From sequence record NC_025447.1: a DNA stretch of 64,000 nt. One strand, given 5' to 3'. The notes beneath the pieces are model-generated. The model saw nothing but the letters and a program-made list of their open reading frames with translations. It was not told where the DNA came from and made no database searches. Below are positions 1,766-36,207 of this stretch, piece by piece. This stretch comes from Escherichia phage 121Q. The position numbers and the translations under genes were made by a program. Numbering within the stretch: position 1 is the stretch's first letter; each line of letters opens with the position of its first letter.

Positions 1766-1958
1766 TCAAGAATGGAAGACCCAAAAGTACAGGGAATTCA
1801 GTACTAGTTTAACAAAAGATGCATTGAATTTAAAAAGAACAGAGTTTGATATGTTTATTTTTCTTGGAACACGTTCACAGGAACAATACATTCATTATTA
1901 TATAAGTTCATTGCGAACGGAGATCGTATGCAAAACACAGGGTATTATAAAAAAGTAA
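1743..1958 (+). CDS. LGT-QE family small protein
   Basis: core FIFLGTRSQEQYIHYYISSL. Confidence 0.6.
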   Translation: MSMYKTINQEWKTQKYREFSTSLTKDALNLKRTEFDMFIFLGTRSQEQYIHYYISSLRTEIVCKTQGIIKK

Positions 1959-2194
1959 ACCAATATTTGTACGCTACAAAGTACAGGGATTTTTGTTTAA
2001 AGGGTGGTGATGAAGATTTTTCTTTGCGATTATCAGAATTTAATCTGTTATTTTATCTTGGTACATCGGAACAAGAAGAAATGGCACAGAAATTTATCAA
2101 GCACCTTGAACAAAAAATTCATATGCAAATTTTGATGCTTAAGGTACATAATGAGATAAACAAATATGAACCCAACAATAGTACAGGATCTTAA
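1928..2194 (+). CDS. LGT-QE family small protein
   Basis: core LFYLGTSEQEEMAQKFIKHL. Confidence 0.6.
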   Translation: MQNTGYYKKVNQYLYATKYRDFCLKGGDEDFSLRLSEFNLLFYLGTSEQEEMAQKFIKHLEQKIHMQILMLKVHNEINKYEPNNSTGS

Positions 2195-2552
2195 ACAAGT
2201 AATATTCCTTTTGAATACAAGAAGTGAATTGTATACAGAGTTAGAAGAGATTAATGCATTTTATCAGAATTTTGTAATTCAAGAGTTCAGTGATTTAATT
2301 ACAGATGCATTATTTGAATTCTCGGAGAAATACAAAGGAACAGAGTTCAGTGTTAAGAATGTTATTCGTCCAATTACAAGGAAAATTATATTATCACATT
2401 TTACATTTGACAATAAAGATTTATTCAGTCATAATCCAAGTACAGCTTTATATTTTATTCCTGATTCAGACAAAAATCATCCTATTCATTACGGATGGAT
2501 TTTGTCGTACATAGTACAAGGAAAGGAGTATCCTATTAAATGGAACGATTAG
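2166..2552 (+). CDS. hypothetical protein
   Basis: 128 aa ORF in gene-dense + strand array; no recognisable motif. Confidence 0.45.
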   Translation: MNPTIVQDLKQVIFLLNTRSELYTELEEINAFYQNFVIQEFSDLITDALFEFSEKYKGTEFSVKNVIRPITRKIILSHFTFDNKDLFSHNPSTALYFIPDSDKNHPIHYGWILSYIVQGKEYPIKWND

Positions 2553-2900
2553 GGCGATTAGATTATTACACAATTAATACAAATTATTTGTTGCGTAATA
2601 TAAAATCCGATTACAAAATATGGATAAAGAACAGAGATAGTATGTGTTATGAATTTTATTTAGATTATGCCATCAAACGCTTTTTAAGAGAAGAACATTA
2701 ATGCACACCACGCACACAGAGCACAAAAATACAAAAACGATAAATGTTTTAAATGATTCTTTATTGGTGAGTATAAATTTATATTATAAAATTCATTTAA
2801 ATGGTGGTATTGAAAATTTTAGTTATTATTTGAGTACAATATCGCAAGAGCATTTAATATACCAAGATCATTTATTGCACCCGAATCCATAAGGCAAATT

Positions 2901-3446
2901 ATGAATGATATAGAATTATTAGCACACAAGATTAGTACAATAATGCTTATCCTCAATAACAACCATCCTATATCGAAGATAGATGGAATCCTGAGTCAGA
3001 GGACAGGTGGTAGTTTATATTTGACATTAACAGAGGTTATCGCAAGGAATTACATTGATATTGAAATCGAGAACAGTGATGCATCAGGAAAGGTTGATGT
3101 AGGTGCATTAATCAGTTCAAATCCAGTATCAGCATCCCCATTGACCAAAGGTGTTAGTACAGGATTCGAAGGGTATTTGTGGTACAATACCAATGATGAT
3201 TATTTTATATATCAGCATTCCAATACAAATTATGATGAAGACAAATTTCAGTTCATAGACCCTTATGATGAAGCTGAAGTATTTCAAAAATCATTAATCA
3301 CAAAACCGCATGAGATGATGTATCTAATGTTATTCAGTACAATGCATTTGAATCCATTAATTAAAGGTTTAAAATTTTATATTCAATTGAATTTAGTCCA
3401 TGTAGTTTATGATTTATTAATGCAAGGATATAGTTATGAAGTATAA
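2901..3446 (+). CDS. FQxS-core family protein
   Basis: core DEAEVFQKSLITKP. Confidence 0.6.
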   Translation: MNDIELLAHKISTIMLILNNNHPISKIDGILSQRTGGSLYLTLTEVIARNYIDIEIENSDASGKVDVGALISSNPVSASPLTKGVSTGFEGYLWYNTNDDYFIYQHSNTNYDEDKFQFIDPYDEAEVFQKSLITKPHEMMYLMLFSTMHLNPLIKGLKFYIQLNLVHVVYDLLMQGYSYEV

Positions 3447-3753
3447 AATGCTTAATACAGTATCAGGGGTATATGTAGAATTAGAATCCGATTATTCAGA
3501 TGGATGGAATTTTATTAAACGACACGATAGAAATACATGGTACATGGCACATTTGGATAATGACGTAATAATAGATAATTTTGTCGATTTTAATACATTA
3601 TCAGAAGAAGAATTTTTCCAAATGCAATTTGTGCTTGATACAAATGGATTTGATTTGCTATTATTAAGGAATATTCAGAAAGCGGTTAATGAATTCATAA
3701 TCCAAAATAATTCAGGTAAAATGGGGATGTTCCATGATCTGGAAGTACAATGA
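3436..3753 (+). CDS. FQxS-core family protein
   Basis: core SEEEFFQMQFVLD. Confidence 0.6.
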   Translation: MKYKMLNTVSGVYVELESDYSDGWNFIKRHDRNTWYMAHLDNDVIIDNFVDFNTLSEEEFFQMQFVLDTNGFDLLLLRNIQKAVNEFIIQNNSGKMGMFHDLEVQ

Positions 3754-4291
3754 AATTCAGTACACCTACGCTAATGCAATCCTTATGGGACAAAAGTTAG
3801 CTTGTATTGTTGCAGCCTTATATAATGCCCAGAAATATCACAAGCGTCATTTCCACAAATGTATTGGTATTATTCCATCGAAGTACAATACATATATTGC
3901 GTGCACGAGTCATTTTGATAAACGATTCAATACACCTGATACCCCAAATGCCAGTAGTGTTATTGGTCTTTTGGATTTCGCACCTGGTGCTGTTATTGGA
4001 AAGAATGATTTAGAGTACACATGGTATAATAAAAATGCCCCGTTAGTAATGGTAAAATATGATACAGAAACGAATAAAACAATAGAGTACAATACATATA
4101 AATCAGAGGAAGAATTTTTCCAAGGTTCATTGCTTGTGCCAGTGCGTTTGTTGTTTTATAATGTCCTTATTAGTACAGTACACAATAGTCCATTACACAA
4201 GAATCACAAAATTAATTTCAATTTTTGTGCTTATGCGATTGATGGTGTGTATGAGTGTTTAATGGAGGTATTGAGTTATGAAGCTGAATAA
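3734..4291 (+). CDS. FQxS-core family protein
   Basis: core SEEEFFQGSLLVP. Confidence 0.6.
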   Translation: MIWKYNEIQYTYANAILMGQKLACIVAALYNAQKYHKRHFHKCIGIIPSKYNTYIACTSHFDKRFNTPDTPNASSVIGLLDFAPGAVIGKNDLEYTWYNKNAPLVMVKYDTETNKTIEYNTYKSEEEFFQGSLLVPVRLLFYNVLISTVHNSPLHKNHKINFNFCAYAIDGVYECLMEVLSYEAE

Positions 4292-4619
4292 TACATTTGA
4301 TATTAATAAGTTAAGAGAATGGTTTTATAGTATTGAAATTGAAGCCATCCCGTATCATAGATATGAACAATATAATTTAACCAGTATTGATATCAGTGAG
4401 TTGTACGCGTATTATCAAAGTGCATTAGAGATGCATAAGTTATTTTTGAGTACAGATTTTGTTCTAAATTACAATTTTGAGGAATTTAATAATTATAATT
4501 TAGTACAGAAATATGTAGTAGCAAAGTATATGTACCTTCAAGGAATTACAAGTAATTTGGAATTCAATACAGTCCTTGCTTTAGTTGAGGTAATTTTATG
4601 CAGTACATGTATGATTTAG
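4278..4619 (+). CDS. hypothetical protein
   Basis: 113 aa ORF, overlaps neighbours by a few nt; no family motif seen. Confidence 0.45.
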   Translation: MKLNNTFDINKLREWFYSIEIEAIPYHRYEQYNLTSIDISELYAYYQSALEMHKLFLSTDFVLNYNFEEFNNYNLVQKYVVAKYMYLQGITSNLEFNTVLALVEVILCSTCMI

Positions 4620-5104
4620 AGTTCAGCTTAGATGCTGCATTTAAATATGTTCACAAGATAGAAACAATATACAGTACATTATGTGCAATACAATCAGTAT
4701 CATCTGAGTTTGATGTTGGTGAAAAATATCAGGTATGGAATAATACATTTCTAAACAAAGAACGTTGCTCTACGGGGTTTAATATTTTAACATTTAATCC
4801 CAGCAATTGTTACCCAGAGAAGCATGAACGTTATCCGAATGACGACATGTGGTTTGATTACACAAAAGATGGTGATATGTCATCCCTTGTAGTTCCTGAT
4901 GATTTTAATGCCGAAGATTTAACGGAAGAGTGGTGGTTTCAACAGAATTTAGTACACGATGATATTGATTTATTTTTTTATGTAGTATTTAAAATGCTTT
5001 ACCACAACAATATATTAAAAGATAGTGTGTTTTTTTCATGTCTATATATTGATGATTTGTACAATGAAATCCAAATCAACATTCCCAGCACGCCTGTATC
5101 GTAA
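4598..5104 (+). CDS. FQxS-core family protein
   Basis: core TEEWWFQQNLVHDD. Confidence 0.6.
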   Translation: MQYMYDLEFSLDAAFKYVHKIETIYSTLCAIQSVSSEFDVGEKYQVWNNTFLNKERCSTGFNILTFNPSNCYPEKHERYPNDDMWFDYTKDGDMSSLVVPDDFNAEDLTEEWWFQQNLVHDDIDLFFYVVFKMLYHNNILKDSVFFSCLYIDDLYNEIQINIPSTPVS

Positions 5105-5129
5105 GATATGGGCTTTTTTCGTTTTGGTA

Positions 5130-5158
5130 TTGACAAAGAAGTGCAAAGCTGTTATCAT
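5130..5158 (+). promoter_or_regulatory. sigma70-like promoter
   Basis: TTGACA, 17 nt, TATCAT upstream of AAGGAG RBS. Confidence 0.5.
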
Positions 5159-5186
5159 GTGTAATCATTTTAAAGGAGAACATATA

Positions 5187-5687
5187 GTGAGTTTCATAAT
5201 CCCAAGTACATACGAAGATGCATCAAGTGCAGTTCATAAGATTCATTATATTTTTAATTTAATTATTAGATCTGCAAAAATTAAAATGTATGCACCTCTT
5301 GTGACAAATAATCGAAATGAAGAAATTTTTATTAGCACAGACAAAATTATTTTTCCATATTTCAATGAAGATAGATTGTGGTTCATACATTTAGCTGCAT
5401 TACAAAAATATAAGATGTCAATTCGTAATAATTTGGTTATACCGTTATATCATCCCGATATTGGAGAGGATGAGTATTTTCAGTACAGCACAGTACACCA
5501 CCATGAAGATATCTTTGCTGCTATGCTTATTGCTAAATTGAACACCGTTGATTTGGAGCAGTACAAATACAATAATAAATCATGTAAGATCATAATCCCT
5601 GCATTCATAGCTCTTTATGATTATGTGGTGCATAACAAAAAAGATGATACATATGCTTTCAATGAAGAGTATTTGAATTTTTTTTAA
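5187..5687 (+). CDS. FQxS-core family protein (GTG start)
   Basis: AAGGAG 8 nt upstream of in-frame GTG at 5187; core GEDEYFQYSTVHHH; ORF-track start at 5025 would run through the promoter. Confidence 0.55.
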   Translation: MSFIIPSTYEDASSAVHKIHYIFNLIIRSAKIKMYAPLVTNNRNEEIFISTDKIIFPYFNEDRLWFIHLAALQKYKMSIRNNLVIPLYHPDIGEDEYFQYSTVHHHEDIFAAMLIAKLNTVDLEQYKYNNKSCKIIIPAFIALYDYVVHNKKDDTYAFNEEYLNFF

Positions 5688-5696
5688 GGAGAACAT

Positions 5697-6224
5697 ATGA
5701 GCAGTGACGTGCAGAAATCAATGACATTCAATGAAATTGGTGCATTTAAAGATAAGATCATTGATTGTCTTGAATACATGATTTGTAGTAATATCGAAAG
5801 TATCGAGATATTTAACAAGACAAATCGCTCTTACCATATGATGTACATTGCAAACAATAATGGTATCATTCCATTTATTTCGGATAGTACAATATGGTAC
5901 GCATGTGATACGAAAAAAACCACAATAGGTTTACATTTATTTGAGACACATTATGATCTAATTATTCCTGAACATTGTATGCAAGAAGAAGAATATTTTC
6001 AAATGCAATGTATACATTCACCATTAGTGTTGTTTAGTTTATATATTATACCTTATATCACCAAATGTGTTCATGAGAATAAAGCTCCGTGGAATCATGA
6101 ATTTGTATCGTTGAAGTTATTGTATAATGTATTAGTAGAATATTATGATTACAGGCACAATGGTACAATCAGTGATGTATGGGATTTTGAATCGCTAAGG
6201 GTGAAAACATACACAGGTGAATGA
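5697..6224 (+). CDS. FQxS-core family protein
   Basis: AAGGAG RBS; core QEEEYFQMQCIHSP. Confidence 0.65.
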   Translation: MSSDVQKSMTFNEIGAFKDKIIDCLEYMICSNIESIEIFNKTNRSYHMMYIANNNGIIPFISDSTIWYACDTKKTTIGLHLFETHYDLIIPEHCMQEEEYFQMQCIHSPLVLFSLYIIPYITKCVHENKAPWNHEFVSLKLLYNVLVEYYDYRHNGTISDVWDFESLRVKTYTGE

Positions 6225-6840
6225 TATGACCAGAATTAAAATGTATGATTTGATGCAGTACAGTAAAATTGCCATTCCAGTGCTTAATAAAGTGCTGGAT
6301 GCATTCATTGCCAAATACCCTGAGAATTCAGTGTTATGTATTCCATTTAGTGTTCCAGATAAAGATGATATATTCCAAGTGAATGTCAGTACACGTGGTA
6401 TTACATTGCAGCAGAAATACATGGATACGGAATATTATGGAATAAAGTTGGATTCAGTACAGGGTTCAAAATCAGCCTATGATTTTTTTGTTCCTAATAA
6501 TATAGAGTCATGGGAAACAAACATTTCAAAGAAAGATGAAAATGATGTTCCTATTAGTGGTGTGTTCAACAATAAAGTTTTTTATTATTACGAAACCGAC
6601 AAATTCCCTGAAGAGTTATATTACAATTCAGAAATGAGTGAGGATATAGATGCATTCATGTTTCAATTATCTTTAGTACATGATATCATTGATGTTCAAG
6701 AGTTAAGAGCAGAAATCAATTTAGCTAAAGAGTTATCGGACATGCTGCCACCGTTTAGTATGCTTTTTTGTGAAGGAGGTTATTTTTCAAAAGAAGTGTT
6801 TGAACATTTCGTAGATGTTGTAAAAGGGTTGGATATATAG
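6217..6840 (+). CDS. FQxS-core family protein
   Basis: core DIDAFMFQLSLVHD. Confidence 0.6.
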   Translation: MNDMTRIKMYDLMQYSKIAIPVLNKVLDAFIAKYPENSVLCIPFSVPDKDDIFQVNVSTRGITLQQKYMDTEYYGIKLDSVQGSKSAYDFFVPNNIESWETNISKKDENDVPISGVFNNKVFYYYETDKFPEELYYNSEMSEDIDAFMFQLSLVHDIIDVQELRAEINLAKELSDMLPPFSMLFCEGGYFSKEVFEHFVDVVKGLDI

Positions 6841-6841
6841 T

Positions 6842-7036
6842 ATGCTTATAATTGATATTAAACAAAAATACCGTAAGTTTGATTGGTTCACCGATAGTTT
6901 CCAGCTTGAATTATTACATATGAATATCAGTGAAACATTATGTGCAGAAACACAAGATGAATTTGATGATAGAGTGATGAACATAGTAATGCTTTCTTGC
7001 TTTAAACATTTTGGTTATTTTTTCGGACAGAATTGA
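6842..7036 (+). CDS. hypothetical small protein
   Basis: 64 aa ORF tightly following upstream stop. Confidence 0.4.
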   Translation: MLIIDIKQKYRKFDWFTDSFQLELLHMNISETLCAETQDEFDDRVMNIVMLSCFKHFGYFFGQN

Positions 7037-7045
7037 GGTAAAAAA

Positions 7046-7561
7046 ATGCATCAACACAAGCATCATTCATATGATTTTGCAATTAACATTATGAAGTTCA
7101 TTCGAGCGTTGGAGGATGGGAAGCTTAGTCATAAGTACAGGAAAGAGGGTAACAATTGGTTCAGAAATGATTCCGAGTTCAGTTGTCATAAAATCGTGTA
7201 TAGTAATCAGTACAGTGCCAATTACCTACAAGATGTAGTGATGTGTTTTGAATACGTGTTGCAGTTCAGGGGTTCAATCCAAGATGAGTTGATGGAGAAC
7301 ATGTACATCCGATACCTTCCAATGCTCAAAGATGAAAATGTATTATTAAATTCAATATACCAACGAGTTCGTGAAATTGAGTGCAGGGATATATTAGATA
7401 CAGAAGAATCGTATTTCCAGCATTCCCTGATTTATTCACCTGATTTATTACAGGTACATAATTTGTTTAATACATTACGTCAGAACATCAGTACAGACAT
7501 ATTTTTGTCATTATCGGATTATGATACATTTGTCAAAGATTTAGAGGAAATAGGTTTATGA
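7046..7561 (+). CDS. FQxS-core family protein
   Basis: core TEESYFQHSLIYSP. Confidence 0.6.
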   Translation: MHQHKHHSYDFAINIMKFIRALEDGKLSHKYRKEGNNWFRNDSEFSCHKIVYSNQYSANYLQDVVMCFEYVLQFRGSIQDELMENMYIRYLPMLKDENVLLNSIYQRVREIECRDILDTEESYFQHSLIYSPDLLQVHNLFNTLRQNISTDIFLSLSDYDTFVKDLEEIGL

Positions 7562-7899
7562 GTCGATTTTCGGTTTGTGTGGTAAACATAAAAAGTGATG
7601 GTAGTTTAATTGAATTAGATGTATATGATGATGATAATGCATATGGTATTAAAGTACAGGACAATGATGTGCAGTTCAGTTCAAGAACAAATTTTGAAAA
7701 TCCAGTCCAAGTTCCTAATTTCATAGAAGATGAAGCAGCACGTTTCCAATACGAAACGGCATATGACAATGTACATATGCATATTATTATGCAACAAAGT
7801 TTAGTTCAATTAGTTCCTTTGTTCAGACAAAATATATATGTACATGAATTGTCGATCAATGACGTTCGCAGTTCCGTATTGTTCGATACAAATATGTAA
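7558..7899 (+). CDS. FQxS-core family protein (divergent)
   Basis: core DEAARFQYETAYD. Confidence 0.55.
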   Translation: MSRFSVCVVNIKSDGSLIELDVYDDDNAYGIKVQDNDVQFSSRTNFENPVQVPNFIEDEAARFQYETAYDNVHMHIIMQQSLVQLVPLFRQNIYVHELSINDVRSSVLFDTNM

Positions 7900-7909
7900 G
7901 GAAAGTACA

Positions 7910-8461
7910 ATGAGTTCAATGAGTTTATTAGATACATTAGAAAAAGACAGAAGTGCAATTAAGCGTTTAAAAGAGCAAGTACAAAAGATTGTATACAACG
8001 TTGATAAGTTTGAAGTCCCAGGAAGATTTGGTGATATTTCCCATACGGAGATCAAATCCCTTAAGTCAGATTTGTTGATTAAAAATAAAAATGGGTTGAT
8101 TTTAGTTTTGAGTTCAGATATGATGGGGGCAACACATAGTTATAATGCAGTATCGGTGCGTTCCGAGTGTGAAGGTATATATCTATCACAGGGTTTCAAT
8201 AGCGAGACACAGGTTTGTTTTTGTGATGCAGTACATGATCCTATGAAGTTCACGAGAAGTGAAGCCCAAGCGTTATTAGAGCTATCAGACGAGAGTTTGT
8301 TTCAGTACAGTACAATGTATGACAATGATAAGCTTCGTTGTATGTACGCTGTAAAGCATTATACACAGGAGTTTTCTGGATTTGCATACCTTTTAGTTAG
8401 AACCAATACCAGATATATTGATATGTTAGAAGATTACATCGATAAAGTTGTTAATGTATGA
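7910..8461 (+). CDS. FQxS-core family protein
   Basis: ATG at 7910 after AGGAAAG; core SDESLFQYSTMYD. Confidence 0.6.
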   Translation: MSSMSLLDTLEKDRSAIKRLKEQVQKIVYNVDKFEVPGRFGDISHTEIKSLKSDLLIKNKNGLILVLSSDMMGATHSYNAVSVRSECEGIYLSQGFNSETQVCFCDAVHDPMKFTRSEAQALLELSDESLFQYSTMYDNDKLRCMYAVKHYTQEFSGFAYLLVRTNTRYIDMLEDYIDKVVNV

Positions 8462-8615
8462 TTTTGTGATGGGATGATGCTAATGAAAGAGTTATTTGAA
8501 GATCAGTTCAATACATATGTGGATAATATTCTTTATTCCAGTCGTGCCAGTCAACGAGGAAATCGTGCTTACAATATTGATTACCTATTGGTGGTGCTGA
8601 GTTCACAGTACACCA

Positions 8616-8846
8616 ATGCGGTACAAAGGGTTTATTATGAAAAGTGCAAGTAATAGTGATATTGCAAAGGAGAAGTTTAAGTGCAGTTTAGATTACGGTT
8701 TAAATGATTTTCTTACATGCACAATGTACAGGAATGATGATTATGAGCAATCCGTAATTTCGTTGCACAGATATTTCGAAATAATTTACGCAAGATATCT
8801 TAGAAGGTTAGAGGGAATAGGGGATTGGAATTATGATTACGTTTGA
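8616..8846 (+). CDS. hypothetical small protein
   Basis: 76 aa ORF; start uncertain (alternative ATG at 8637). Confidence 0.4.
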   Translation: MRYKGFIMKSASNSDIAKEKFKCSLDYGLNDFLTCTMYRNDDYEQSVISLHRYFEIIYARYLRRLEGIGDWNYDYV

Positions 8847-9069
8847 AGAACCAGAAACAATGAGTCCATATACGATGAAAGGTTTTGAATTCATGATGGA
8901 TTCGATTTTGAAGAATTCGTGTTTAGTACACAATCCTGAGCGTGCAACAGTGAGGGAATATCAGGACAATGCATTACAGCGTGTAATGAATATGTACAGG
9001 AATACGAGTCGCAAGCTTTGTGCGTTGAAAAGGATTGAAGAAATCAAGGTTTCTAGGCTGAATAAATAG
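8833..9069 (+). CDS. hypothetical small protein
   Basis: 78 aa ORF overlapping upstream gene end. Confidence 0.4.
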   Translation: MITFEEPETMSPYTMKGFEFMMDSILKNSCLVHNPERATVREYQDNALQRVMNMYRNTSRKLCALKRIEEIKVSRLNK

Positions 9070-9268
9070 AGACGTTTCATTTTGACAGGCCGCAGGGGGG
9101 GTCAAAAAAATTTCCGCTGAAAAACATGCTAAGGTATATGTTTAATATAAAGTTTTATATTGTGTTTTTCAGAGTACAGTTCATGTTTCCTGAAACAAAA
9201 AAAATACCCCGCCACCGAACGTGCTCTTTATATTGGAGTTTACCTTATTAATTATAGTAGAGATTAAG

Positions 9269-9646
9269 ATGGAAATAAAATATAATGAATTTTGTGCAAG
9301 GACATGGATGTACACTGGTGAGTTAGTTACGCACTCTAACTTATACAAGGGTGATTTAAACTACGCCAGGGACAAGATTTTAAAGTACTGGAATGCTGAC
9401 TTTTATTTGATGGATTTTAGTACTGGGTTTAGGGGTAAAGCAACCGAGATGTTGGACTATACAGTACTTGATGATGCTGCACTGTTTCAGGAGGCATTAG
9501 TATTTGATAAGAAGTACATCTGTACATTAGAAGAGATGATTGAATTACAGCGTAGAATTAAATGTATTCACAGGGAATGTATAGATATCTGGTGCAGTAC
9601 TGGTGAAGATAATTTTTGTAATCATTTCAATCTAGGGGAAGTGTGA
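9269..9646 (+). CDS. FQxS-core family protein
   Basis: ATG at 9269 (ORF-track start 9221 is GTG with no RBS); core DDAALFQEALVFDKKYICT nearly identical to 10235 and 10588 genes. Confidence 0.55.
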   Translation: MEIKYNEFCARTWMYTGELVTHSNLYKGDLNYARDKILKYWNADFYLMDFSTGFRGKATEMLDYTVLDDAALFQEALVFDKKYICTLEEMIELQRRIKCIHRECIDIWCSTGEDNFCNHFNLGEV

Positions 9647-18522: not shown

Positions 18523-19013
18523 TTACTACAGAATATGATTACGATGGTGTTTTAGAATTTGCAGACAATATCTATCGCATTGCAAAGGAGTTCAGAAGTC
18601 CTGACCCATTTGGTGGTATGTTCGAATACGATGAGTTTAGTTCATCCAAAGGAAGACTTGCGTTTACTAATGAAAGAGGTAATCAAATCTATGCCGAGTA
18701 CTTTGATGACAATGACTTTCATTACAAAGCCGGATACATTTCATATTGCCCTGGGTCTGATTTGAAGATTAATATTGACAATTATAGAGAAGCAGTATTT
18801 GTTAAGTATGATGATTTAGTGTTCATGTCAGAGGAAATGTACTTTCAGGGTTCTTGTATTCATGATGTAAAAGTACTTAATGCTATGTTATTTTATGGTG
18901 CACTACTTCATCATTACAAATACAAACAACGATTCTTTTTAGATTTAGTAGTATACTATAAATGCGTGGATTATTTGAATGCAAAATACGACAACAATTC
19001 AGTACATGACTGA
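18519..19013 (+). CDS. FQxS-core family protein
   Basis: core SEEMYFQGSCIHD. Confidence 0.6.
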   Translation: MITTEYDYDGVLEFADNIYRIAKEFRSPDPFGGMFEYDEFSSSKGRLAFTNERGNQIYAEYFDDNDFHYKAGYISYCPGSDLKINIDNYREAVFVKYDDLVFMSEEMYFQGSCIHDVKVLNAMLFYGALLHHYKYKQRFFLDLVVYYKCVDYLNAKYDNNSVHD

Positions 19014-19341
19014 TGGTACTGAATACTTTGTTTCAAGATATGTAATCAGACACAATCATTATGTAACCTATATTCCAGAATACAATCAATTTTATATCCA
19101 GATTTATCAAGACAATGGAAAGATAAATGATATATATTCAGAAATAAAAATCCCTGATTATAGTACTTTATCAGAAGAGGAATTGTTTCAGCAGAGCACT
19201 ATCAGTACTGAAGATGTGTACAAAATAATGGAATACCAGAAGGTACTTAAATATTTTCATGAAGTACAGGATATACAAATAGATATTCTTACTGCGTGGA
19301 GTTATATCACACACGAGGTAAATTATGTTCGAAATGATTAA
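19006..19341 (+). CDS. FQxS-core family protein
   Basis: ATG at 19006 overlapping upstream stop; core SEEELFQQSTIST. Confidence 0.55.
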   Translation: MTDGTEYFVSRYVIRHNHYVTYIPEYNQFYIQIYQDNGKINDIYSEIKIPDYSTLSEEELFQQSTISTEDVYKIMEYQKVLKYFHEVQDIQIDILTAWSYITHEVNYVRND

Positions 19342-31889: not shown

Positions 31890-32744
31890 ATGAAACTTTA
31901 TCTAATCGTTGACTACAATAAGGATTATGCTGGTAACTTCACCGAAGATTCGGATGGATATTGCACATCGACTAATGTCAATGTACGTAGCAGTAGTGCT
32001 CATGAACATGAATCTTGTAAAAATCTAAAAGATTTTATCGCATACCGAGCATTTGAAAAGAACTTCTGCCGCAGTAGATATTCGAAGTTTGAGTACCCGT
32101 TAATTGATGTTCCTGATGATTTAATGTTCCAGTTAATGCTGACCGGAGTTCAAGATTATGATTACATAGCGTATAATCATATTACTAAGAAAATTTATAT
32201 TGGTACATCATCACATGACACTTCTATGTATGCATCATGCCCAGATGATCGAATGAATGATAGAAAATCATACTATAGTGGGTCAGTTGGTTTAAATGAT
32301 TCATTAAATAAAAATTCATTCTTTGAGTATGTTTATGATTACCATCATGAGAAAAAAGAACGTGAAGATTACTGTATAGCAATTGATAGTACTAATGGTT
32401 ATGAAGACGTGAAAGAAGCACTTATGCCGTACATTATTGAAAAGTACTACAAAGATTTTCAGTACTGTAGTAATTTTCTAATCAGAAATTCTATTATAAT
32501 CGGTCGCCAATCTAGTGCATACTCTCAGTACTATAATGATTCACCAGTAGCATCGGCAAATGAAATGTGTGATATTTTACAAATTCCACGTGAAGATATG
32601 GCATTCATTTTTACATCTTTTATTGAAGATGATGAGTTGTATATTAAAAATAAACACCGTTTCATGCCAAGCAAGATTGAGGTTATTCGAAGTTTTAGTG
32701 TTGATATACTAACAAATTTCACAGAAAAAACCGAATATAACTGA
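31890..32744 (+). CDS. FQxS-core-containing protein (large member)
   Basis: ATG at 31890 downstream of terminator; core PDDLMFQLMLTGV within a 284-aa product. Confidence 0.5.
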   Translation: MKLYLIVDYNKDYAGNFTEDSDGYCTSTNVNVRSSSAHEHESCKNLKDFIAYRAFEKNFCRSRYSKFEYPLIDVPDDLMFQLMLTGVQDYDYIAYNHITKKIYIGTSSHDTSMYASCPDDRMNDRKSYYSGSVGLNDSLNKNSFFEYVYDYHHEKKEREDYCIAIDSTNGYEDVKEALMPYIIEKYYKDFQYCSNFLIRNSIIIGRQSSAYSQYYNDSPVASANEMCDILQIPREDMAFIFTSFIEDDELYIKNKHRFMPSKIEVIRSFSVDILTNFTEKTEYN

Positions 32745-32774
32745 GACAAATGATAAGTTAATGATATAATATAA

Positions 32775-32807
32775 GGTGACAACATAATATGTTAGTCACC
32801 TTTTTTT
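32775..32807 (+). terminator. rho-independent terminator
   Basis: GGTGAC-aacataatatgtta-GTCACC hairpin followed by TTTTTTT. Confidence 0.65.
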
Positions 32808-32809
32808 AA

Positions 32810-33347
32810 TCCTGAAAGGTTCCCATAAGGAAATGATTAAAAGCCTAATCCACTCGAAAATGTAGAGGGTAGATGAGTAGTCCTTTCAGTACGAACAGCA
32901 GATGAAACCCGTTAGATGATGGCATAGTTTGAACCACTCACGGCAATGCGGCTGTATAAAGAACTCCAATAGGATAAAGAGAGTTCCTCGATAGACATAT
33001 AAGGATCGCACCTTACCAATTATCTAAGGGAGATTTCATAAGAAATATGCGGTCGGAATTATACAATATAGTTGCGTCCAAATTTTGTGAAATCAAATAC
33101 AAGTACTGGTCATATGGTATTTGTATTATGTGTCGGGATGTTTAAGACCGACGACCGTTGCTACAAGAACCGCGATAGAGAGAAACAGAGCAACCCGCTT
33201 TCGTCTCGTAAGAGAATTCGTGATATGAACTATGTGAAGGCCACCAGCGTCAAATTTTTTTGTTCTTTCCCCTGCGGGGGGATGAAATATGCTCAAGCAA
33301 ACCCCGTCAATATTAATTAAAAGAAAATAGTACTTGTAGAATTAGAC
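32810..33347. other. ORF-free, hairpin-rich island (candidate structured RNA or control region)
   Basis: No convincing ORF on either strand; locally higher GC by eye; complementary segments CTGAAAGG/CCTTTCAG, GAACTC/GAGTTC, GTCGG/CCGAC, TTGCT/AGCAA, CCCC-tgcg-GGGG. Confidence 0.35.
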
Positions 33348-33422
33348 ATGCGTAGCATGATAATTCTACTGATGTTGATGCAATCAACGTCACGTATATT
33401 CATTGATGTTTCCATAGGAATA

Positions 33423-33968
33423 ATGATGGCATTTATTAGAAAAGAAAAAACTGTTACTTATAAAACTTTGAATTTTGATGATTGCATTAATCAATCACAA
33501 GACGAAGATATCTTTACTGGATATGTGGTTATTAAAGAAAAAGGATGCATTTCTTATATAAAGGAATTACAAAATGGAATTGAAGTGACTTCAGTTAAAT
33601 TACTTCCTACTCAAAAACCAACAATATCAAAAGCCCAGTATGGTAATTATTTTGAAGAAAGATATAGTAATAATTCAATAAGTGTTAAGGCTCATATTAT
33701 TAAAGGAGAACTAGAAGGAGAATATAGAAAATACAACCCACAAGGAAAATGTGTTTGGGTTAAATACTTCAATTCAGGATATGATGTAACATCTGAAATT
33801 ATAGAGTTCTTGGGTTTAAAATGTACCCCTGAGACTATTCATGATTACAAGTTCAATACTGAAGAAGAGTTTAATCTGATGATGCGTTACGGTTCACATT
33901 TTAAATTTTTATATGAATATAACATTGACAGTAGTACTTTTGATAAGATAGTACACAACTGTCTCTAA
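33423..33968 (+). CDS. hypothetical protein
   Basis: ORF 33348-33968; first plausible ATG after RBS-like AGGAA at 33423; start uncertain. Confidence 0.4.
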   Translation: MMAFIRKEKTVTYKTLNFDDCINQSQDEDIFTGYVVIKEKGCISYIKELQNGIEVTSVKLLPTQKPTISKAQYGNYFEERYSNNSISVKAHIIKGELEGEYRKYNPQGKCVWVKYFNSGYDVTSEIIEFLGLKCTPETIHDYKFNTEEEFNLMMRYGSHFKFLYEYNIDSSTFDKIVHNCL

Positions 33969-33984
33969 CAAAAGGAATTATATA

Positions 33985-34506
33985 ATGTCGAAGAAGGATG
34001 CTTCGAAAAAACATTCAGTACATTTCAGTACTGGAAAAGATAACTGGACAACTCCCAAAGATTTCTTTGAAGATTTGGATGAGTTATGGGGATTTACACT
34101 TGATGCTGCTTGTGTAGATGAGACTGCATTGTGTGATAATTTTTTCACTCCAGAAGATGATTCACTATCACAGGATTGGGGAAATAATATAGTTTGGTTG
34201 AATCCACCATACAGTGACTTGAAAACTTGGTTATCTAAAGCAGTAGATGCATATAATAACGGGGCAACTGTAGTTATTCTTGTACCCTCAAGAACCGACA
34301 CAATTGCTTTTCAGGATTATGCTGCTAAAATATGTGATTGTATTTGTTTTATTAAGGGAAGATTACGATTTGGTATACCAGAAGAACCCGATAAGAAAAC
34401 AGATTCAGCACCATTTCCTTCGTGTCTGATAGTACTGGATAAGTACTTAACCACTGCTAAAATCAATTATCTTAAATCTCTTGGGTTGGTGATGAAGAAT
34501 TTATGA
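33985..34506 (+). CDS. DNA N6-adenine methyltransferase (phage Dam-like family)
   Basis: WTTPKDFFEDLDELWGFTLDAAC and catalytic NPPYS motif (WLNPPYSD) typical of phage N6-adenine MTases. Confidence 0.8.
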   Translation: MSKKDASKKHSVHFSTGKDNWTTPKDFFEDLDELWGFTLDAACVDETALCDNFFTPEDDSLSQDWGNNIVWLNPPYSDLKTWLSKAVDAYNNGATVVILVPSRTDTIAFQDYAAKICDCICFIKGRLRFGIPEEPDKKTDSAPFPSCLIVLDKYLTTAKINYLKSLGLVMKNL

Positions 34507-35036
34507 AAGAAACATGTGTATTAACGTTTGGTCGTATTAATCCTGTACATCGTGGACATGGTTTAGTTTTTGAAAAGGCCAAAACATTACAAGAACAGTA
34601 CAATGCTGATTTAAAAATATATCTAAGCACCAGTACTGACAATATAAAAAACCCACTCCCACCTGAACTAAAAATGTATTATACAGAGGGATTCTATCCT
34701 TCAGTGCAAGAGAACATCTACACAGAAGACAATCTATTTGATATAATGAGAGAACTGGATGGAAAGTACTTAGATGTTCTTTTCATTTGTGGTTCTGACC
34801 GTATTGATTCTTTTCAAAAAACTCTTGACATGTACAATGGTAAGTTGTATAATTTTTGTAGTATAAAAGCAATTCAGGCAGGTATTGACCGTAATGTAAG
34901 TCAATATAGCTCAACACAAATGCGTAACTTCGCAAAAAATGAAGATTTTGATAGTTTTCGTGAGTTTTTACCTGGAAATGACGAGGACTTAAAAATACAA
35001 TTATTTGAAGACGTTATAAAATACATGAGGAAATAA
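34503..35036 (+). CDS. HxGH nucleotidyltransferase (NMN adenylyltransferase-like)
   Basis: N-terminal TFGRINPVHRGH matches the G-R-F-x-P-x-H-x-G-H signature of NadM/cytidylyltransferase-fold enzymes. Confidence 0.5.
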   Translation: MKETCVLTFGRINPVHRGHGLVFEKAKTLQEQYNADLKIYLSTSTDNIKNPLPPELKMYYTEGFYPSVQENIYTEDNLFDIMRELDGKYLDVLFICGSDRIDSFQKTLDMYNGKLYNFCSIKAIQAGIDRNVSQYSSTQMRNFAKNEDFDSFREFLPGNDEDLKIQLFEDVIKYMRK

Positions 35037-35038
35037 TT

Positions 35039-35332
35039 ATGTCAGTACTGTTCAAAACCAATCCAGTACTTTGGGATCAAAATGAGCAATCAGGATTTCG
35101 TTCCATCCATGTTGAATACAAAGGTAATACTGTAGTTGCAATTATTGCTAACAAAACTCTAGGAAACTGGACTGCACAGGTTGTTCCTATGGGATATTCT
35201 TACACATCTGATGAGGTACAATTCCTGGCTGAACTATATCGCCAAGTGCCGTTTATCATTAATGTACTAGAAGGTAATGATACATTATCACATGCAGATG
35301 TGATTAATTTTCTTGGAAACTTGCATGTGTGA
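35039..35332 (+). CDS. hypothetical protein
   Basis: 97 aa ORF, tightly coupled. Confidence 0.45.
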   Translation: MSVLFKTNPVLWDQNEQSGFRSIHVEYKGNTVVAIIANKTLGNWTAQVVPMGYSYTSDEVQFLAELYRQVPFIINVLEGNDTLSHADVINFLGNLHV

Positions 35333-35612
35333 TGAAATAAATCTTACAGGATATTTTTTACAAGAATCAATGATTAAATTTAGTGAAAAATTTTCAGTAC
35401 TGGATGGTATCGAAATGTGGCATGTCAAACCACTGTTCCACACTTTCAGTAAAGAGCACAAAATGTTATTGACTGAAGCGAGTAAATCAAATAACATATG
35501 TGAAATCAAAATTGGTGTAAATGTCTATAAAGGGATGGTTATCTTTTTTGACAATAACAGCAACTACTTTTATATTGTTAAGGAGCATTACGTTGACAAA
35601 TACAAATACTAA
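35325..35612 (+). CDS. hypothetical protein
   Basis: ATG at 35325 overlapping upstream TGA. Confidence 0.45.
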   Translation: MCDEINLTGYFLQESMIKFSEKFSVLDGIEMWHVKPLFHTFSKEHKMLLTEASKSNNICEIKIGVNVYKGMVIFFDNNSNYFYIVKEHYVDKYKY

Positions 35613-36207
35613 TACATACTTCCGTTATCTTCGCTTAGGTCTTTCCCTACGTCCGATCCGTGGAAAGTGCGATTCACTCGCTGACCTTGACTATGCATAT
35701 GCATTACATCATGAAGGTGTACAGTATGTATTGGGTGATTATGGTGAATTTGAAGAAACAAATGACAGTACTGGAATTAATGCTGGTGTAGAAAATCTTA
35801 ACAACATTGCTAACAGTTCTCGCCATGACATTGTGTTACAGATTCAAAACTTTATTGAGCAGCACACAGGTAAACGTGTTTGGTGCTATGTCGGTACTGA
35901 TGCACAAATGTCAATTTCATTCGGTAACGATGAAGGATATGTTGCACAGCTTATTATGGATTTTGAATCTGAAGAGAAGTTTTTAGAATTCAAAGAAAAG
36001 ATTATTCAGTCACTTGTTGATATGGGTATCCCCGAAGATAAAATGCCAGAAGTTCAAAACATTGATGAATTTGTTTTGATTCCATCTGATGAGAAATATG
36101 ATGCAATGTTTACTGCCCTTAATATTCCAGGAGTTATTGTGGAGTACTTTGATGATGGTGATGATAGTATCTATATCGATCTAGATGACGATGACGACGA
36201 TGAATAA
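35521..36207 (+). CDS. hypothetical protein with acidic C-terminus
   Basis: ORF ends in DLDDDDDDE; start uncertain (alternative TTG at 35593 after AAGGAG); TNTNTNT low-complexity near N-terminus. Confidence 0.45.
   Translation: MSIKGWLSFLTITATTFILLRSITLTNTNTNTYFRYLRLGLSLRPIRGKCDSLADLDYAYALHHEGVQYVLGDYGEFEETNDSTGINAGVENLNNIANSSRHDIVLQIQNFIEQHTGKRVWCYVGTDAQMSISFGNDEGYVAQLIMDFESEEKFLEFKEKIIQSLVDMGIPEDKMPEVQNIDEFVLIPSDEKYDAMFTALNIPGVIVEYFDDGDDSIYIDLDDDDDDE

Follow-up and report, generated by a model that had tools for sequence, protein, structure and literature searches.

The window analyzed here is a stretch of 64,000 nucleotides from Escherichia phage 121Q (NC_025447.1), and all positions given for it count from its first letter. 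Positions 33985..34506 of its + strand hold an open reading frame (ORF) with an ATG start and a TGA stop, which the ORF list and the Pfam, PHROG, and tblastn searches mark as the coding sequence of a DNA N6-adenine methyltransferase of 173 aa. We propose that the product is a stand-alone DNA N6-adenine methyltransferase of the T1 Dam family, dependent on S-adenosylmethionine (SAM), that would target GATC and protect the phage DNA. We put the probability of this joint reading at roughly 0.6.

The protein scores 110.8 bits (E=7e-32) with the Pfam family PF05869 (Dam, phage T1-type), for which the gathering cut-off is 28.1 bits; the match covers profile positions 7-149 of 169, and PF05869 is its sole Pfam match. 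It also matches PHROG 111, 'DNA methyltransferase' (E=7e-57), and its best PADLOC model is 'orphan methyltransferase' (oMTase, E=3e-34). With matches to Pfam, PHROG, PADLOC, and NCBIfam models, the ORF is therefore not a chance one. An earlier note, made from the letters of the window alone, had described a compact phage-type N6-adenine methyltransferase with an NPPY motif, and the PF05869, PHROG 111, and PADLOC matches bear this out. A search of a large protein collection returned 2441 homologues, and PF05869 was found in 120 of the 120 listed.

The NPPY catalytic motif IV comprises residues 73-76 (codons at 34201..34212, + strand) and follows a predicted strand at residues 69-72. In an alignment of 45 homologues, 23 positions are invariant, among them N73, P75, and Y76, and P74 is nearly invariant. 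When the Dam proteins of phages T1, VT2, and Phi93 join the alignment, 19 positions are still invariant, including all four NPPY residues. Outside motif IV, the jumbo-phage, Phi93, VT2, and T1 proteins agree without exception at W21, T23, P24, D40, C50, L61, W65, K85, L99, P101, G125, R126, F129, and S146. The AlphaFold model built from the 45-homologue alignment has a predicted local distance difference test (pLDDT) score of 87.4 and a predicted template modeling (pTM) score of 0.83, with disorder confined to the basic N-terminal 14 residues. It shows the class-I SAM-dependent methyltransferase fold of the N6-adenine type. No solved relative was found by sequence with HMMER, either with the single protein or with the 45-sequence profile. 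Compared with its counterpart in phage vB_Ec-M-J, where the regional DNA is ~84% identical, the gene has a ratio of nonsynonymous to synonymous substitution rates (dN/dS) of 0.06 (dN 0.05, dS 0.86), indicating that it is a working gene under strong purifying selection. The AAGGA at 33972..33976 on the + strand, 8 nt 5' of the ATG, resembles a Shine-Dalgarno element and may serve as one.

Positions 33000-36000 are 100% identical to Escherichia phage vB_EcoM_phAPEC6 (MK817115.1), a 352.6-kb jumbo myovirus of the genus Asteriusvirus, and 99.7% identical to phages G17 and Sharanji. At the protein level, tblastn finds the methyltransferase to be 100% identical to phAPEC6 gp394c (QDF14018.1) and to the G17 and Sharanji copies. 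Over its full length the window is a mosaic relative of phAPEC6 and not phAPEC6 itself, with 100% identity around the methyltransferase, 98.3% over 9822-43451, and 92-95% elsewhere; none of the records in the phage collection agrees with it from end to end. The gene is a core gene, which tblastn detects in every RaK2-like jumbo phage group and in all ~68 RaK2-like genomes of the phage collection; the host genera of the phages carrying it are Escherichia (31 records), Klebsiella, Salmonella, Erwinia, Yersinia, Serratia, Pectobacterium, Cronobacter, and Xanthomonas. The enzyme is already known. GenBank labels phAPEC6 gp394c 'DNA N-6-adenine-methyltransferase (Dam)', the orthologue gp447 was named 'dam' in the RaK2 paper (PMC3622015), and at least four publications about the phage group, those on phAPEC6, Sharanji, UE-S1, and RaK2, interpret the methylation as protective.

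Gene neighborhood and the ORF-free island

The + strand holds 116 of the 117 long ORFs of the window, and the methyltransferase gene lies within a long array of small, function-unassigned genes, upstream of genes for RNA ligase, polynucleotide kinase, and DNA ligase. Across the four genes upstream and the three genes downstream, Pfam, PHROG, and PADLOC gave no nuclease or defense match. In phAPEC6, vB_Ec-M-J, RaK2, Serratia phage BF, and Xanthomonas phage XaC1, the annotated neighbors are hypothetical proteins or the cytidylyltransferase described below. The absence of an adjacent restriction endonuclease, which the earlier note had called consistent with an orphan anti-restriction methyltransferase, thus stands, formally apart from the neighbors whose function is unassigned, and is in line with the oMTase assignment by PADLOC. 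A promoter and terminator scan around the gene gave background-level matches only.

The same note had placed the gene immediately after an ORF-free island, which is incorrect because an ORF of 206 aa intervenes at 33348..33968 on the + strand (stop codon at 33966-33968). This ORF corresponds to phAPEC6 gp395c and to phrog_16210 (PHROG E=3e-94), and its product has no Pfam or PADLOC match. The phrog_16210 gene adjoins the methyltransferase gene upstream in all five neighborhoods read (phAPEC6, vB_Ec-M-J, RaK2, Serratia BF, and XaC1). It is present in 68 phage records of the clade, with genus counts that nearly match those of the methyltransferase. We treat it as context for the methyltransferase, and a partnership between the two products is only conceivable from this pattern. 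Downstream, a cytidylyltransferase-like nucleotidyltransferase gene, gp393c, lies at 34503..35036 on the + strand (PHROG 3041, E=9e-58, with a weak CTP_transf_like match), and its start overlaps the methyltransferase stop (ATGA). The two genes adjoin in most of the clade, while four ORFs separate them in XaC1, so this adjacency is not obligatory and is likewise context only. The order of the conserved non-coding block, the phrog_16210 gene, the methyltransferase gene, and, usually, the cytidylyltransferase gene is kept in RaK2, Serratia BF, and XaC1.

The ORF-free island itself spans 32745-33347 and contains this conserved block of ~480 nt at 32830-33320. The block has counterparts at 18739-19208 of the RaK2 stretch, 18846-19328 of the Serratia BF stretch, and 18735-19273 of the XaC1 stretch, and it retains long identical runs across the phAPEC6-like, RaK2, Serratia BF, and XaC1 phages; the proteins of these phages share no more than 30-60% identity. 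From the four block sequences, RNAalifold predicts 62 pairs, 16 of them with compensatory double changes. A tRNA scan and Rfam at its gathering threshold found no known RNA gene in the island, and with Rfam E-values up to 5 there was no match within the block. From its conservation and pairing pattern, we regard the block as a candidate for a new structured RNA of RaK2-like jumbo phages. Just upstream of the block, at 32741-32808, an extended -10 promoter-like TGnTATAAT is followed directly by a GC-rich hairpin and a T-run, and this arrangement is present also in Serratia BF and XaC1.

Predicted target and protective role

The characterized members of PF05869 offer a guide to the target. M.Phi93DAM of lactococcal phage Phi93, which is identical to the protein of phage Phi17 and 43% identical to the window protein, produces G6mATC, as shown by single-molecule real-time (SMRT) sequencing and by cutting with DpnI and DpnII, both on plasmid DNA from a strain that expresses it, and it shields DNA from DpnII in vitro (PMC4190342). 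M.EcoVT2Dam (32% identity to the window protein; PMC6602927) and M.EcoT1Dam (31%; PMC4996451) also target GATC, and M.Btr190III targets GATC with substantial off-target activity (PMC4996451). The Phi93, VT2, and T1 enzymes are mutually only 32-36% identical. This divergence among GATC enzymes exceeds that between the window protein and M.Phi93DAM, so GATC is the best guess, and we consider it the probable target of the window enzyme. The earlier note, which had called the target specificity unknown, was too pessimistic in this respect, because all characterized PF05869 enzymes are GATC-specific and GATC is the leading candidate by analogy.

The chemistry, as suggested by the fold and the NPPY motif, would be the transfer of a methyl group from SAM to the N6 position of adenine. 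By analogy with N6-adenine enzymes, the single-domain protein would flip the target adenine into an NPPY-lined pocket. It may thereby keep a fast-replicating 350-kb phage genome fully methylated at GATC. Hemimethylated and unmethylated GATC sites can be nicked by MutH-type enzymes or attacked by restriction enzymes directed at GATC, and full methylation would guard the DNA against nucleases that attack such sites. In Dam-positive hosts (Enterobacterales), host Dam may lag behind a 350-kb genome that replicates many times, and in Dam-negative hosts such as Xanthomonas the phage enzyme would supply the GATC mark outright. We infer the DNA substrate, the GATC target, and the protection, and the protective role, drawn by analogy, is the least certain part of the proposal; an anti-restriction role in particular is plausible. 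The RaK2 paper (PMC3622015) states, with the data not shown, that the DNA of that phage is cleaved solely by enzymes tolerant of Dam, Dcm, CpG, and EcoKI methylation, and this reported Dam-type resistance of virion DNA speaks for the proposed reading.

Several points weigh against GATC methylation as we propose it. An identity of 43% to the nearest characterized enzyme guarantees no shared specificity. The score against TIGR01712 (phage_N6A_met), the nearest NCBIfam model, is 91.5 bits, below the equivalog cut-off of 97.05, and by NCBI's rule the protein is no equivalog. GATC is depleted in the window, with 94 sites observed versus 189-219 expected (0.43-0.50x), and stands at 0.72-0.76x in relatives. 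Between relatives, 24 of 64 GATC sites (37.5%) are conserved, compared to 53% for all 4-mers. Such depletion and fast turnover are unexpected if methylation by the phage made GATC harmless, and most hosts are Dam-positive, so the gain from a second GATC methylase is not obvious. A search of the available literature turned up neither methylome nor enzymology data for the RaK2-like clade. The genome statistics of GATC, taken as a whole, neither confirm nor refute a GATC target.

Much of the same evidence would suit an active PF05869 adenine methyltransferase whose target is not GATC and is unrelated to the palindromes enriched in the window, either GATC-like sites recognized in a relaxed way or a short motif that was newly gained on the clade's stem branch. 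The distance to the nearest characterized enzyme, the missed equivalog cut-off, and the depletion and poor conservation of GATC in clade genomes fit such a change, and the off-target methylation by M.Btr190III shows that relaxed behavior already occurs in the family. Against it, all four characterized members, which span the diversity of the family, are GATC enzymes. Moreover, the protein has no clade-specific extra domain: the loop at residues 130-141 and the C-terminal segment of ~20 residues, which at first seemed clade-specific, have counterparts in the VT2 and T1 Dam proteins. We therefore consider a changed target unlikely, while giving it more weight than the remaining alternatives.

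AGTACT palindromes and GCGC avoidance

The methyltransferase gene by itself adds nothing new, and any real novelty of the region lies in the conserved RNA-like block, the AGTACT palindromes, a domain that carries only AGTACA, and the absence of GCGC. AGTACT occurs 193 times in the window versus 21 expected from base composition (9x), and GTAC occurs 541 times versus 189 expected, so the abundance of AGTACT/GTAC mentioned in the earlier note is real. CAGTAC is enriched 14.6x, and CAGTACTG occurs 41 times versus 0.6 expected; the flanks of AGTACT prefer C at -1 and G at +6. The enrichment extends to the other members of the clade, with 7.9x in RaK2, 13x in Serratia BF, 11.7x in Xanthomonas XaC1, and 13.5x in a metagenomic relative. 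The sites lie about one per 300-330 bp; within genes they fall in each of the three frames, and non-coding DNA holds the share that its length predicts. This distribution rules out a coding or promoter origin.

Comparison of the window with vB_Ec-M-J (83.4% identity over 40.6 kb) shows that AGTACT is intact at 100 of 135 sites (74%), compared to 41.5% across all hexamers and 40.7% across those of matching composition. Conservation of 74% versus ~41% indicates that AGTACT is a selected or repair-maintained element at the DNA level. Two known motifs that were considered, the SlmA-binding site (GTGAGTACTCAC) and the LexA box, do not explain it: their flanks do not match, and GAGTACTC occurs 0 times. 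A search of the available literature for AGTACT in jumbo phages found nothing.

One part of the window departs from this pattern. The 7.6-kb domain at 1801-9383 contains 0 AGTACT, 1 GTACT (7.1 expected), 0 TGTACT, and 41 AGTACA (15x). The corresponding DNA of phAPEC6, an independent genome that is 93.7% identical over the domain, contains 0 AGTACT, 0 GTACT, 0 TGTACT, and 37 AGTACA; of the 41 window sites, 34 are conserved. In Serratia BF, the first 52 kb show no AGTACA-only domain. The replacement of the palindrome by a strand-specific AGTACA suggests an orientation-dependent reader of AGTAC.

A further anomaly concerns GCGC, which occurs 0 times in the window versus 44 expected and 0 times in the stretches from RaK2, Serratia BF, XaC1, and the metagenomic relative; T1 has 255 sites. 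In total, 26 of the 64 six-base palindromes, mostly G+C-rich ones, are missing from the window. This is an extreme and conserved site avoidance.

The methyltransferase might be imagined to write N6-methyladenine (m6A) on the GTAC/AGTACT palindromes as a dense self-label or protection that is read by a phage or host factor. The earlier note had raised such a link as speculation, and if true it would mean that specificity has shifted within a family whose known members are all GATC enzymes. Both the methyltransferase and the AGTACT enrichment are universal in the clade, and the selection on the sites (74% versus 41% conserved) means that some factor must read AGTACT. The co-occurrence, however, is phylogenetically non-independent and, with the gene in all ~68 clade genomes alongside the enrichment, uninformative within the clade. 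The family itself lends the link no support: no PF05869 member is known to target GTAC, and outside the clade two phages that carry family members have no AGTACT enrichment (0.22x in T1; 1.08x in a large marine phage whose homologue is 44% identical). Nor would protective methylation be expected to enrich its own target, and the strand-specific signal of the AGTACA-only domain suits a directional reader better than an enzyme that methylates a palindrome. We regard AGTACT writing by this enzyme as improbable.

Still less probable is a substrate that is mainly RNA or another non-DNA molecule. Least probable of all is that the protein is inactive, a mere relic, or that it has the methyltransferase fold but serves in structure or regulation: nothing specific speaks for it, and the family-invariant residues including NPPY are all intact, dN/dS is as low as given above, and no clade member, with hosts from Escherichia to Xanthomonas, has lost the gene.

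Comparison with known enzymes

The nearest characterized enzyme, M.Phi93DAM, belongs to PF05869 like the window protein, is 43% identical to it over 141 residues, and has the NPPY, RTDT, GRLKF, and SAPFPS blocks in common with it. Like the window enzyme, it is encoded by a phage without a partner nuclease. Classical motif analysis recognizes motif IV only (PMC4190342). M.Phi93DAM differs in being a minimal protein of 140 aa that has neither the extended loop at 130-141 nor the C-terminal segment (~20 residues) of the window protein. Its gene, unlike the window gene, is flanked by the terminase genes of a siphovirus that has a 32-kb genome and a Gram-positive host. Moreover, the activity and target of M.Phi93DAM have been measured, whereas those of the window enzyme are predicted.

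M.EcoT1Dam of phage T1 and M.EcoVT2Dam of the Stx2 phage VT2-Sakai are the founding members of PF05869 and, like the window enzyme, are orphan enzymes of coliphages. The loop and C-terminal segment of the VT2 protein resemble those of the window protein, but both enzymes have other residues in place of its RTDT and SAPFPS blocks, and T1 Dam further differs by a 50-residue N-terminal extension and an internal insertion. Unlike the window, the T1 genome shows neither enrichment of AGTACT nor avoidance of GCGC.

Beyond the family, the closest solved structure by fold comparison is the methyltransferase domain of PCIF1/CAPAM (PDB 6irv and 6irx), with 12-17% identity. PCIF1/CAPAM is a eukaryotic writer of N6,2'-O-dimethyladenosine (m6Am) at the mRNA cap with an additional helical domain, and HMMER finds no sequence relationship, so the likeness is a fold resemblance and not family membership. 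The Hia5, Hin1523, and Nma1821 proteins resemble the window enzyme as orphan m6A enzymes that are prophage-encoded and thought to protect DNA broadly. They differ in belonging to the lineage of E. coli Dam, T4 Dam, and DpnM, with a DPPY motif near residue 194 and a separate target-recognition region. Identity with a non-specific enzyme of the Hia5 type is thus ruled out, because the Hia5 group belongs to the E. coli Dam/DpnM lineage and the window protein matches PF05869 only.

The closest counterparts of the window enzyme are the orthologues of the RaK2-like phages, namely RaK2 'dam' gp447, those of PBECO4, CBB, and GAP32, Serratia BF_0063, and XaC1_104, which are 42-100% identical to the window protein. 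They share with it the gene order in the genomes read, the annotation, and the published interpretation, and we found no difference of substance between them and the window enzyme.
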